Positions 20,113 through 29,289 of a stretch of 64,000 nucleotides of DNA are shown piece by piece. The notes below the pieces were generated by a model, which saw nothing but the letters and a program-made list of their open reading frames with translations, was not told the DNA's origin and searched no databases. The translations under genes were made by a program, and so were the position numbers. Source of the DNA: Escherichia phage Sa157lw; the sequence record OK322699.1. One strand, written 5' to 3'. The number at the start of each line of letters is the position of its first letter. The stretch's first letter is position 1.

Positions 20113-20265
20113 ATGATTTTAATCTTATGGTTTGTATTCACATTTCTGGCCATGGCCGACATCGGCAAGTATCACGTTCTCCCAAGCGACCTGACCGTCC
20201 TGCTATACGGCATAGTTTCGTTTGTGCTGGGTTCCTTGCGCGCCCATATGAGGACTATATCATGA
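20113..20265 (+). CDS. small membrane protein (50 aa)
   Basis: GAAGGA RBS; ILILWFVFTFLAM hydrophobic core; same RBS-spacer motif (ggactatatcATG) as next gene. Confidence 0.3.
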   Translation: MILILWFVFTFLAMADIGKYHVLPSDLTVLLYGIVSFVLGSLRAHMRTIS

Positions 20266-20804
20266 GCACCCCAAAAACTCCTGTCCGTATCGCTGTTGAG
20301 CCTCTGCTGGTTGATGCTGAGAATGCTGCTGAGCAGTACGCGAACAAAATCATCAAGAACATAATGGACGATCTAGCATCCAACGGCTGGGACGTTGAGA
20401 AGTGCGCTCCGTGGCCATCTTCGGTTGGCGTCAAGTTTGGTGATCCAGATTACCAACGAATGAAATCAAAACACGCACTCTACCGTTCTTTGACCCAGGC
20501 AGTGAATCCTTCTTACACACCTGGGAAGCCGGATATTGTCAAAGCTGATCCTGAGCGCCATGCTCTGTTTGTCAAGGAAGCACGTCGAAACGCTGCGATG
20601 CAATATGAGTCTTTCATTTGTAAACTGGAAAACAAAATTGGTGGTCATAGCGCGGCTGTACTGAACGGTTCCCATGTATGGGGTTATTCAATCCTGACCG
20701 TGACTACACCAGAGGGGATCGAGCGCTGGAAGACTCAGACGATTATCAATATGTCCAAGTTGGGCAAACTTTTTAACCAATATCCAACGAGGAAGGTGAA
20801 ATGA
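20262..20804 (+). CDS. hypothetical protein (180 aa)
   Basis: Start at MSTPKTP with GAGGA RBS. Confidence 0.5.
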   Translation: MSTPKTPVRIAVEPLLVDAENAAEQYANKIIKNIMDDLASNGWDVEKCAPWPSSVGVKFGDPDYQRMKSKHALYRSLTQAVNPSYTPGKPDIVKADPERHALFVKEARRNAAMQYESFICKLENKIGGHSAAVLNGSHVWGYSILTVTTPEGIERWKTQTIINMSKLGKLFNQYPTRKVK

Positions 20805-21175
20805 TGAAAAACTTCGCACAAGAATTACAGACTACGATTGATCAGGCTCAGATTTGGGAAGCCATGGGGATAGTTGAAAAAGCCGTCGATATCTTTGTTT
20901 GCAAAATGAAGAAGCAACTCGTTTCCCAAGCAAAACGCGGAGTTGAAATTGATGACATGGTGTACGCTGTTGGTGGCCATAGGTTTGACGAAATATTAAC
21001 AGCATTCCAACAGGCACATAAGTCTCAAAAATACCCAACAGACAGGCAAGTCGAAAAGTTCAAAACATTGTTGGTGGCGAGTCTTCTGAAGGAAGGTTTG
21101 AAGTTCGAATTACACAAGGATGAAAGGACAGATGTCGTAACAATGAGATTCACAGTATACACAAACGATATCTAA
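20801..21175 (+). CDS. hypothetical protein (124 aa)
   Basis: Start overlaps upstream stop. Confidence 0.45.
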   Translation: MMKNFAQELQTTIDQAQIWEAMGIVEKAVDIFVCKMKKQLVSQAKRGVEIDDMVYAVGGHRFDEILTAFQQAHKSQKYPTDRQVEKFKTLLVASLLKEGLKFELHKDERTDVVTMRFTVYTNDI

Positions 21176-21201
21176 AATAAAGGGGCTTAATGCCCCTTTG
21201 T

Positions 21202-21660
21202 TTATTTCCCATCCCAAAAGTCGTCTTCATCGTCTACTTCATCAAACGCAGAATCCAATTCTTCGTCAGAGTACTCTGGAAGGCGACCATTCTGTTTCAG
21301 ATATTCAATCTCGTCATCTTCCAATTGAAGATCCGTTGCTATAAACAGTGCTCCGGTCTCTTCATCATGTTCAATGCTATAAGACGTATATTCAGAACCC
21401 TGAACTGTAATGATGATAGATGTCGGATCTTCTGGATCCACGTGAGCTTCAAACGGGATACCGTCAATTGGGGCGTCTTCTAAGAACGTTGCAAGGGCTA
21501 CGGCAGCGCGGACAACATCCGTGCCCTGTACCGATGCATAAATTTCTTCTGCACCCGTTTCCCCGCGCTCAAAGAATTCAATCGTAGTTCCGTCTTGAAC
21601 ACCAGTCCAGATAGGCATATCTGCTGGGGAATCAGATTCAAATAATTTCGAAATTGGCAT
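21202..21660 (-). CDS. highly acidic protein (152 aa)
   Basis: Very high Asp/Glu content throughout (e.g. DSAFDEVDDEDDFWDGK). Confidence 0.5.
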   Translation of the reverse strand: MPISKLFESDSPADMPIWTGVQDGTTIEFFERGETGAEEIYASVQGTDVVRAAVALATFLEDAPIDGIPFEAHVDPEDPTSIIITVQGSEYTSYSIEHDEETGALFIATDLQLEDDEIEYLKQNGRLPEYSDEELDSAFDEVDDEDDFWDGK

Positions 21661-21695: not shown

Positions 21696-22144
21696 TTAGG
21701 CTTCTCTGGTCGCCAACCCTGGCTTAAACACCACCATTTCCTCAACGTTATTGGCACTCATAGAGGCTATAGAATCGAACCCTTTGTTGACAAGTTCTTT
21801 CACATTATCATGTATCTTACCAGGCTTTATCCCCAACTCTCGCATTTTATTTTCCCACACCGAAACATTGTTGGAATCTATTACAAGAGTCTTCTTGGCC
21901 TTGACACGAAATGCCATGACAATAGGTTCACCAGATTGACGATAGCGCACGGCATTTTCTGCGTAGATCTGTGCCTTTCCGGATCCCCTGTCAGGTAAAA
22001 CCCAGCACCCATCGTACCAGAGTCAGTCTGGCCAAATTTTTCAAAATCAAATATATCGAATTCAACATTAGACCCATGATACAAAACGATATTCGTAAAA
22101 TCAGGTAGCGTTGATTCGCGATAAAATTCTAGAAAGGTTTTCAT
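21696..22144 (-). pseudogene. gene split by a frameshift at a C4/G4 homopolymer (N-part 21881-22144, C-part 21696-21950)
   Basis: Two overlapping same-strand ORFs in different frames; joining at the run at 21985-21988 gives one continuous ~139-aa protein (...GAGFYLTG|GSGKAQIYAENAV...). Confidence 0.45.
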
Positions 22145-22183
22145 AGATACCCCACACTGGTCGTATGGGGTATTTAGGATGGA

Positions 22184-23611
22184 TTAGCTGGGGACAAACT
22201 CATTCACAGGGACATGTTCGGGGATTGATAATTCAGGACAAGCAGCTTTCATCGCTTCCAGATATGGCTTGCTCCCCACGATCCAAAACAATGAGTTCTC
22301 ATTAAGCAATTCTGGTTTGTGTTCCTGTATCCATGTCATGACCTTACCTTCATAACGAGGATGCAACTCAATATCCCCCCACTGGTAATCCATGAGGTCG
22401 TTGTAACGAACCCAATTAGTGGTATGAAGATCCCAATGGTGTACCTCAAAGCGAGGAAGCACGATATCCGGCTCGTTCTTTGGCCTGATACCACTTAGGA
22501 GGCCAGCCAACGAAACGCTCTTAGAGGCATGCGGAAGATCCTTCTTACCATACACATAGTCTGGGTTGTCGTGATAGCGACGAGTGAAATCAGTTATGTG
22601 AGGGAGGTTTGCTTGCTTACCGATAATGCGCAAACGACTTTCAATGAAATCTAATCGGTTAGGTCCAATCCCGATCAGATAGACATTCTTCAGATTTGGT
22701 TTCGGATGCATCGCCAAACCTGTCAGGATACTGGTGCACGAATTACAAGAACCAGCAGGAATGATCAGATCAGTGATATGGTCTGGGATATTGGCAACCT
22801 GCTCACCACCCAGCATATGGAATCCAGCAATGCGTTCTGGTGAATGAACGGTATGATCCAATGTAATGCCATATTCCAGATAATACGCCTTTGGATTTAA
22901 TTGTTCAATGAGTTTCTTACAGCGCGGCTGAATGGTGCTATTGTAACCAGATCCAACAAAGTTAAATTCACTACCAAACCATGCTGACATTGAAACCATA
23001 TCATGGTTCATGCATGTGGTTGGTTTAGTGGCACCCAGCACAGTGGTTGTCTTGCCGCCGAAATGCCGTGAGACTGCCGTCGCCATAGGGGACTGCGGAC
23101 TACCAACGACAGTACCATGGATAAGATCTGGGGATCCTCCCGCTTTAAGATGCTCCATCATGAGCCAGATGGCCTGACGGAGTTTGCTGCCATTGATCCC
23201 CTGCTTGCCGTTCTCATAGTGGGACAGGGGCGCAAAGTAATCTTCACGCTTGAACCAAACCTTCTGATCGGTTTCTGGATTGGCGACGAGTTCACACGGG
23301 GTGTGCTTGTAGAGGTAGTCTTCCCAGTGCACCAGATTGCGGTCGAGGGAGAGAGTGGTGAATATAGACTTGCTGTGGTGCTGGGAGATTACACCATTTG
23401 GTAATGGCTGCACAGAACAGAGTTCTTCACAAATTTTCTTTGTGTCGATCGCCTGAGGTATGCCAGCGGCTGACATCTCTTCTTTCAAGGCGGCGGCAGT
23501 CCATTCTTCTAAAGTATCGCGATCGATACCGTCGGGAAAGATAAAGGGGCTGGCGGTTTCTTCGACTGCCTGTTTGGTGTGATCTATAAGTTTCTGAAGT
23601 TTGTCGTTCAT
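22184..23611 (-). CDS. enzyme-sized protein (475 aa), weakly PLP-dependent-enzyme-like
   Basis: GINGSKLRQ and Gly/Ser-rich loops loosely resemble fold-type II PLP enzymes; not a confident assignment. Confidence 0.4.
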   Translation of the reverse strand: MNDKLQKLIDHTKQAVEETASPFIFPDGIDRDTLEEWTAAALKEEMSAAGIPQAIDTKKICEELCSVQPLPNGVISQHHSKSIFTTLSLDRNLVHWEDYLYKHTPCELVANPETDQKVWFKREDYFAPLSHYENGKQGINGSKLRQAIWLMMEHLKAGGSPDLIHGTVVGSPQSPMATAVSRHFGGKTTTVLGATKPTTCMNHDMVSMSAWFGSEFNFVGSGYNSTIQPRCKKLIEQLNPKAYYLEYGITLDHTVHSPERIAGFHMLGGEQVANIPDHITDLIIPAGSCNSCTSILTGLAMHPKPNLKNVYLIGIGPNRLDFIESRLRIIGKQANLPHITDFTRRYHDNPDYVYGKKDLPHASKSVSLAGLLSGIRPKNEPDIVLPRFEVHHWDLHTTNWVRYNDLMDYQWGDIELHPRYEGKVMTWIQEHKPELLNENSLFWIVGSKPYLEAMKAACPELSIPEHVPVNEFVPS

Positions 23612-23680
23612 TCTATTTCTCCTGTAGGCATTGGCTTATCATAGCGTATCTACAGGAGTATAGAAAAGGAGAATCTCGGC

Positions 23681-24382
23681 TTACTTCTTGAACAGACGAA
23701 GGAACTTCATCATGTTATCCATGAAAGTCGGCTTCTTGACCTTTTGTTTTACCGGAGCGCCCTGATCATTCAGAACACGACTGGCCGGAGGAGTAGGCGG
23801 TGTCGGGATTGAACTGTCATGTTTAACAACCGGAGCACCACTGGCCAGAGGAGTTGGCTTCAAAGATTTAATTGCCTGATCCAAATAGGAATTGTCCACG
23901 ACACTCACGTCTTCACCGACCGTAACGCATGGTTTGATTAGAACGGATTTCTTAGATTGCTCATATTGATGAGCAATATCCATATATTTCTTGCGCTCTG
24001 CGTAGAAATCAACATTCTTTACTTTACGGCGGCGAGCAGTAGAACTCTCTTCACCATAGAAATCATAACCATTTTTGAATAACCAATTCACGGCTTGCTC
24101 AAATGTATTGAACACCATATACAGACCGCGTCGACCATTTACCATGTCGTCTTCGCTGGAATAACCAATGAATACCGCTTGCCCTTTCTTGTTGATATCA
24201 AAAGGAGTACACACACCAGTTTCTTCAAGTGATCGCGGAGAAAGATGCCCGTCCCGATAGATATATGCCGGATACAAGAACTCATTCAGAGTACGTTTGT
24301 TCCCTTTGTATGTGTACAGGCGAGCAAATGGAGGCAGGTCACAAACGATATCGTTGTAATCCCAAATCGTAACATTACGCAT
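23681..24382 (-). CDS. hypothetical protein (233 aa)
   Basis: Intact ORF. Confidence 0.45.
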   Translation of the reverse strand: MRNVTIWDYNDIVCDLPPFARLYTYKGNKRTLNEFLYPAYIYRDGHLSPRSLEETGVCTPFDINKKGQAVFIGYSSEDDMVNGRRGLYMVFNTFEQAVNWLFKNGYDFYGEESSTARRRKVKNVDFYAERKKYMDIAHQYEQSKKSVLIKPCVTVGEDVSVVDNSYLDQAIKSLKPTPLASGAPVVKHDSSIPTPPTPPASRVLNDQGAPVKQKVKKPTFMDNMMKFLRLFKK

Positions 24383-28499: not shown

Positions 28500-29289
28500 C
28501 TTGCCGTTCAGTGAGTTAACTATACTTTGTAACCCGTTATTGATAAAACCTTTTATTTTTGTTGACGAGGGTGTGGAATCGAACCACACTTCTGAGCGCT
28601 GCCCCGTGTCACCAATGCACCACCTCACCATCGATTTGCCGGAACTTACGCATCCGGCCTCGCCTGTTGGTGATCCTTCGAATCCGGGAAGATTAGTAGG
28701 AACTATGAATCAAGTTAATTCGACCAACAGGAATCCTCGTGTTGCCCTTTGACGCAACATTATGAACCCTCTATGAAGACTCATAATGTTGTCGGCGTGA
28801 TGGAGATTAGCGCCCCCGACCTCCCCTTATATGTTGGTGTCGACTTGCCAACGGGGTGCTCTCATTCTTCTGAGCTAATCACGCTACAACAGGGAGTTTC
28901 GTTCTCCGACGGTCAAGTGCGTCCACTGACACCAGCGAGGTGGATGTGACGCCTCTATTCACACAAGCCCCAGAGACTAGGGGTTCACTGTTTTCGGTTT
29001 CAAGCCTACTCACACTGTGCTGTTTCCCTCATGTTTGATACTTTACTGCAAGCCAGCCAATTTGAAAAATCCTCTCCCCTTTGAATTACACTGCCCACAG
29101 CAGTGCGGACGAACCTTCATTCAAAACCGGATGCGCCGAAATGGGCGACTGTGTACCGGACTGATCAGGTCGACCCAGGAGAGAGCAGGTAATCCCGATC
29201 AGGAGGATGAGGAGTAACATCATGTAAAACATAGTGTTCCCTCCCTTCCATGCAACTAACTTTACCGCATTTATTTATTGAATAAAGCG

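Follow-up and report, generated by a model that had tools for sequence, protein, structure and literature searches.

ADP-ribosyltransferase (ART) domains of polyvalent proteins were described by Iyer et al. in 2017 as a family with a histidine in strand 1, a tyrosine in strand 2, and an aspartate in strand 5 (PMC5512222), and such domains are predicted to be packaged and injected, modifying host macromolecules (PMC5512222; PMC9503650). The present analysis concerns a stretch of 64,000 nucleotides from Escherichia phage Sa157lw (sequence record OK322699.1; hereafter, the window), in which a gene for a predicted stand-alone member of this family spans positions 21,696 to 22,144 of the minus strand. 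By alignment with related phages, a private deletion of one base, which shortens a T4 run to T3, breaks the gene after codon 56 and leaves two small open reading frames (ORFs) in place of one.

The two minus-strand ORFs lie in different frames and overlap, the first comprising 87 residues and the second (21696..21950) 84 residues (Table 1). The 87-residue ORF matches positions 1-58 of the family phrog_4700 (E=1e-33) and the 84-residue ORF matches positions 66-149 (E=4e-48); because both match halves of one and the same family, the pair is not due to chance. The tblastn alignments place the N-terminal part in frame -1 (22144..21968) and the C-terminal part in frame -3 (21977..21699), the latter being 100% identical to the Kuttervirus phage SeF3a. 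The N-terminal fragment carries H23 (in LYHGSN) and Y50 (in GAGFYLT); the C-terminal part begins, as a mechanical ORF, at GTG 21950, and no convincing start signal was found in the C-terminal frame. The first-pass annotation had delimited the two overlapping frames exactly, and had read them as one gene broken by a single-base frameshift that one added base would mend, an interpretation borne out by the phrog_4700 halves and by the intact relatives; the joined protein, for which it had given about 139 residues, would comprise 149 residues once the frame is repaired.

The position of the lesion was defined by alignment with five close relatives, extended later to phage 38, Se-N, and ECML-4. The relatives read GGGGATCCAGAAAAGG on the gene strand and the window reads GGGGATCCGGAAAGG, corresponding on the plus strand to a change from CCTTTTCTGG to CCTTTCCGG, in which one T is gone from the T4 run and a neighboring T is replaced by C. 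This synonymous replacement at 21980 is the sole substitution relative to SeF3a in 523 nt. An exhaustive one-base insertion test discloses that an A added to the A-run of the gene strand restores 149/149 identity with the SeF3a orthologue, whereas a base added in the G4 run yields 146/149, with the junction TGGSGKAQ in place of the native TGDPEKAQ. The missing base had been sought in that C4/G4 run, with the corresponding junction residues; the run is unchanged in the relatives, and the lesion lies in the neighboring A-run.

Megablast searches with the surrounding 2.7 kb and with 24 kb retrieved hundreds of Ackermannviridae genomes, 95-99% identical in mosaic blocks and for the most part Kuttervirus phages infecting Salmonella and E. 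coli (ViI, CBA120, SFP10, Det7, SeF3a, Hercules, and ECML-4), and neither search returned a record identical to the window. The 523-nt region is matched over at least 80% of its length by 169 phage records, the close relatives listed spanning 524 nt. In the annotated relatives that were opened, the gene is a single coding sequence (CDS) of 450 nt (CBA120 orf229, SeF3a_203, STML-13-1, STP-4, ECML-4, Hercules, and Vi01_183), annotated as 'ADP-ribose transferase' in the case of SeF3a_203, and the sequence matches identify the window locus as the Kuttervirus orthologue of Vi01_183 / CBA120 orf229. The corresponding protein cluster at 90% identity comprises 39 distinct sequences, the 15 listed all having 149 residues and the most widespread occurring on 72 contigs.

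The lesion is private to the window in every collection searched. Among the 129 phage records with the same allele, an 81-nt probe spanning the lesion was matched at 97.6% at best (one gap and one mismatch), neither change being shared; the lesion-bearing 30-mer was not found in viral, species-genome, and metagenome contig collections, where the wild-type 31-mer used as a control was found; and neither truncated product occurs in a collection of 15 billion proteins, with no contig encoding the 87-residue product. That collection does register such breaks, as it holds P0174, the 50-residue truncated product of Salmonella phage 38. In the latter phage (KR296692.1 14297-14745), the ART gene is independently frame-broken by the loss of one T from a different T4 run (GATTTTGAA to GATTTGAA), about 45 nt upstream of the window lesion, and the annotation divides it into two CDSs, SP38_36 and SP38_35. 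All other records inspected base by base are intact. Orthologues likewise split into two genes, the observation that had been put forward as arguing against a single broken gene, are thus not found as a rule, phage 38 being the exception.

The intact orthologue, which has the same sequence as the window protein after repair, matches the Pfam family ART-PolyVal (PF18760) with 41.9 bits, above the gathering score of 31.2; without the repair, the N-terminal fragment reaches 21.6 bits and the C-terminal fragment gives no match. The Pfam family PF13151 (DUF3990), a member of the ART clan, scores 32.1 bits, just under its gathering score of 32.2 and over residues 20-89 only, and on these scores ART-PolyVal is the better assignment, DUF3990 being a related clan member. 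An AlphaFold2 model built from 21 homologues (predicted local distance difference test, pLDDT, 88; predicted template modeling score, pTM, 0.81) is predicted with confidence to adopt the ART fold. Since sequence searches against solved structures, with both the single sequence and a profile, returned chance-level matches only, the structural assignment rests on fold comparison. In the alignments, H23 is invariant, Y50 (in GxGFYLT) does not vary among the orthologues and is mostly retained beyond them, and E136, located in a v-x-E-hydrophobic strand, is near-invariant and replaced by Asp in DUF3990-like relatives. The three residues map to the predicted strands 19-25, 47-52, and 133-139 of the model, respectively, in keeping with the H/Y/acidic layout of the family. 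The suggestion of a small H-Y-E-type ART, which the first-pass annotation had offered as speculation, is therefore supported by the PF18760 score, the confident fold, and the conservation of H23, Y50, and E136.

An exhaustive profile search gathered 2,047 cluster representatives, the best matches after the orthologues comprising (i) giant proteins of 1,000-7,300 residues, with up to 8-10 copies of the domain, and (ii) solo proteins of about 150-160 residues. Because its nearest non-orthologous matches are these giant multi-copy proteins and solo proteins, the Kuttervirus gene, whose 149-residue product is not embedded in a large multidomain polyvalent protein, is a stand-alone copy of the polyvalent-protein ART domain. 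The comparison of the two Kuttervirus alleles gave dS=0.62 and dN=0.019 (synonymous and nonsynonymous divergence, respectively), a dN/dS of 0.03 that marks a functional gene in the family, under strong purifying selection. A literature search found no experimental paper on the ART protein, and the PhiSH19 paper contains nothing on the gene.

As to the origin of the deletion, for which the first-pass annotation had named a sequencing error and a recent pseudogene among its options, our leading reading, given an even chance from the sequence comparisons, is a local error of the consensus or of base calling, the gene being otherwise intact. A local miscall is suggested by the spacing of the two private changes, which lie 2 nt from each other and both affect T on one strand, in phages where about 40% of T is hypermodified (PMC11721090), by the lack of any other difference from SeF3a in 523 nt, and by the strong constraint on the gene. 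Several points weigh against this interpretation: sequence alone does not separate an error from a real mutation, 4 bases make a short run for a homopolymer miscall, the remainder of the window is clean, contrary to what a generally error-prone assembly would give, and the private deletions, three in number, are too few to reveal a technology bias, several similar differences being shared with Hercules and hence natural.

The base-by-base comparison of the window with ECML-4, Hercules, and SeF3a discloses about three single-base indels private with respect to all three relatives, at ~6649 (A6 to A5), ~21976 (T4 to T3), and ~25408, all of them deletions in short runs; this all-deletion pattern is a weak hint of under-calling, with three events far too few to conclude. 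The deletions at ~6649 and ~25408 (T3 to T2 or equivalent) fall in intergenic or tRNA regions, and apart from the ART lesion all unpaired 1-nt indels lie in intergenic spacers or the tRNA region. Pervasive homopolymer under-calling was considered and rejected: most unpaired 1-nt indels are deletions in the window, but several are common to Hercules. A tblastn scan with all ORFs of at least 80 residues from four long loci of relatives, which reached over most of the window up to about 63.3 kb apart from divergent blocks such as the tail-spike region, found no gene other than the ART gene split between two frames; the additional flags for broken genes corresponded to the antisense shadow of the same indel and to a spurious ORF across the tRNA cluster. 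The window is not generally error-ridden. Separately, the stretch 28663-28864, which bears no annotated CDS in ECML-4 and Hercules, displays four 1-nt indels relative to these two phages (net zero), including two lost T's (TCG[T]CC / TTC[T]GA).

Alternatively, the deletion may be a genuine and very recent loss-of-function mutation, with the ART dispensable on the propagation host and the window carrying a null allele, a nascent pseudogene, a reading that we regard as only a little less likely than an error. One complex slippage or misincorporation event might perhaps have made both the deletion and the adjacent substitution, and the absence of further substitutions relative to SeF3a fits a very recent event. 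The otherwise clean window, with no second broken conserved ORF, also favors a real mutation, as does phage 38, broken independently in the same gene as expected for an accessory gene open to loss, although the phage 38 break could itself be a homopolymer sequencing error. On the other hand, the low dN/dS and the intact frames of the other inspected relatives indicate a gene that is normally maintained, the lesion was found in no other sequence searched, and a local miscall would account just as easily for a pair of private changes lying 2 nt from each other. If the deletion is real, its combination with the phage 38 break could reflect recurrent selection to lose the ART on particular hosts, making the enzyme a host-range or avirulence-type determinant of Kuttervirus biocontrol phages, a proposal that we consider unlikely; were it true, the enzyme or its product might trigger a host abortive-infection defense, or be costly, on those hosts.

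A further alternative concerns the intact protein, which instead of modifying the host might be a purely structural virion component or an accessory to thymidine hypermodification, for instance by acting on DNA. The relatives annotate the product as a 'structural protein', some ART-fold enzymes act on DNA, and the gene lies near a DNA polymerase gene and directly downstream of the gene for an enzyme that depends on pyridoxal phosphate (PLP), Vi01_182, which, judged by its ORF number and its predicted function, appears to be ViI gp226, a protein used in reconstituting the 5-NeOmdU thymidine hypermodification. Nevertheless, conservation of the catalytic H/Y/E residues under strong purifying selection is unexpected for a purely structural role, and the homologues nearest to the protein are ART domains belonging to polyvalent effector proteins. 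The link to hypermodification through the neighboring PLP enzyme is unlikely because five ViI genes, the ART gene not among them, sufficed to reconstitute 5-NeOmdU in lysates (PMC5889632). Taken as a whole, we consider this alternative quite improbable.

That a regulated fraction of full-length ART arises by programmed -1 ribosomal frameshifting, by slippage during transcription, or at a contingency homopolymer, a phase-variable or programmed origin having been among the options of the first-pass annotation, is highly improbable and, on the sequence of the locus, largely refuted: the frames do share about 140 nt of overlap, where the fusion would result from a -1 shift, and the independent breaks in two genomes are both at short homopolymers, but the fusion zone (gene nt 122-261) contains no in-phase X XXY YYZ heptamer (the sole XXXYYYZ, GGGTTTT, is out of phase and present in intact relatives), its longest homopolymer of 4 nt is far under the need of slippage or phase variation, taken as about 7 nt or more together with length polymorphism among isolates, the run at the lesion has 3 nt in the window and 4 nt in the aligned relatives, with the deletion shared by 0/129 same-allele records, and the intact relatives encode the ART in one frame, lacking a conserved recoding signal.

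Returning to the intact enzyme of the relatives as a host-modifying ART, its most likely activity would be NAD+-dependent ADP-ribosylation of a host macromolecule in early infection, and the enzyme may ride in the virion at low copy, with delivery possibly as for T4 Alt. Mass spectrometry of the LIMEstone1 virion reported ORF173 (17.33 kDa, 11.8% coverage, 1 unique peptide) and ORF174 (16.62 kDa) among the 'unknown structural proteins', all of which were said to have structural counterparts in ViI (PMC3296691). LIMEstone1 ORF173 was assigned to the ART gene by size and synteny; the JA15 orthologues have exactly the masses of LIMEstone1 ORF173/ORF174, and are located two and three genes after F-LimX (ORF171). 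In addition, Vi01_183 and Vi01_184 are labeled 'phage associated protein', and virion association of the intact ART is plausible, if on slender evidence. This functional picture is tempered by several considerations: for the intact protein, activity as an enzyme, a host target, and delivery with the virion are predictions, the third catalytic residue is Glu in these phage proteins versus the Asp described for the family (PMC5512222), the evidence from virions consists of one peptide in one phage together with labels in annotations, and the virion table of Sajous1, the gene numbers of which are not mapped to the ART gene, names no ADP-ribosyltransferase. In the window allele, the N-terminal fragment (56+31 residues) would retain H23 and Y50, and the C-terminal fragment, with E136 and strands 3-7, would be at best unexpressed. 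Neither fragment should be active because the split β-sheet of the ART fold needs both halves, and on the structural model the window allele is predicted to be null.

The ART gene is embedded in a tightly spaced minus-strand run comprising three upstream genes, the PLP enzyme, the ART, and a 152-residue acidic protein, and the order PLP enzyme / ART / acidic protein is kept out to Dickeya Limestonevirus (Table 1).

Table 1. Coordinates of the split ART gene, its lesion, and the flanking features in the window.
Feature	Position	Strand	Remarks
PLP-dependent enzyme, upstream	22184..23611	-	Orthologue of Vi01_182 (orf00226); longer, mosaic 5' end here
Possible weak Shine-Dalgarno GGGG	22150..22153	-	5 nt ahead of ATG 22144; kept in relatives; putative
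N-terminal fragment ORF	21881..22144	-	56 native residues M1-E56, then 31 out-of-frame residues and premature stop
C4/G4 run	21985..21988		Identical in all aligned relatives; not the lesion
Private synonymous substitution	21980		Plus strand T to C; gene strand CCA to CCG, Pro55; adjoins the deletion
Lesion, one-base deletion	21976..21978		T3 on plus strand (A3 on gene strand) versus four in relatives, by alignment
C-terminal part, same gene, other frame	21696..21977	-	Native K57-A149 and stop; carries the acidic residue E136
Acidic 152-residue protein, downstream	21202..21660	-	Orthologue of LIMEstone1 ORF174 and Vi01_184; reported virion-associated
Bidirectional terminator-like hairpin	21179..21199		Closes the minus-strand run, between convergent gene runs

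The PLP enzyme ORF comprises 475 residues in the window, with a good AGGAG ribosome-binding site ahead of ATG 23611, and is annotated with 397-424 residues in the relatives. At its 5' end (23366-23611), about 238 nt of the window stand in place of about 82 nt of SeF3a, and no phage record covers at least 80% of the region 23330-23690, the best partial match being the Shigella phages MK-13/Gloob (93.5% over about 154 nt); from these alignments, the 5' end looks like a mosaic junction adding an N-terminal extension. The GC-rich hairpin downstream of the acidic protein gene is formed by AAAGGGGC-loop-GCCCCTTT, with T-runs on both sides, and its loop differs from that of SeF3a by small indels. On the plus strand, the genes just ahead of this terminator (20127-21175) vary by mosaic type, with 20800-21176 unaligned to ECML-4, Hercules, and SeF3a; the window has here a 124-residue ORF (20801-21175), as in STP-4, and ECML-4, Hercules, and SeF3a have a 181-residue CDS.

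Overall, the event at the locus is an ordinary one, a private frameshift of one base or else an error of the consensus, in a conserved phage ART-like gene that had been annotated before, and its importance as a discovery is little. For annotation purposes, it would be best to join both small ORFs into one gene marked as frameshifted (or to correct the sequence), and to name the product an ART-PolyVal-like ADP-ribosyltransferase, not two hypothetical proteins. All Ackermannviridae examined keep this small, strongly constrained, possibly virion-borne predicted H-Y-E ADP-ribosyltransferase, and a natural null allele, if confirmed, would offer a ready tool for probing its function in Kuttervirus phages, which serve in Salmonella and E. 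coli O157 biocontrol.

Compared to known systems, the Kuttervirus ART has no sequence-level match to the 1071-residue pre-ejectosome protein of cyanophage A4 (PDB code 9k3a, chain B), and a keyword search of the A4 paper brought up no mention of an ART domain. AcrIF11 (PDB code 6kyf), a small ART of phages and plasmids whose target for ADP-ribosylation is the type I-F CRISPR complex, is without detectable sequence similarity to the Kuttervirus protein, and nothing points to anti-CRISPR activity here. T4 Alt, a virion-packaged and injected ART, provides a working model only, that of early host-protein modification (PMC5512222, PMC9503650); it is a much larger protein, of the R-S-E (Alt/VIP2) clade, whereas the Kuttervirus protein is of the H-Y-E type, bears no sequence relationship to Alt, and lacks the Arg-Ser-Glu motif of T4 Alt/ModA/ModB. 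With ART-PolyVal (PF18760; the Tox-ART-HYD2 clade, PMC5512222), the Kuttervirus protein shares the H/Y/acidic layout, phage origin, and hints of virion association, differing in its solo architecture and in the use of Glu instead of Asp as the acidic residue, the window copy being in addition frame-broken. Direct counterparts are the Ackermannviridae orthologues, including Vi01_183, CBA120 orf229, SeF3a_203, and LIMEstone1 ORF173/JA15 'unknown structural protein', which represent the same gene in the same synteny and are intact single ORFs, whereas the window gene carries the private 1-nt deletion and the adjacent substitution.
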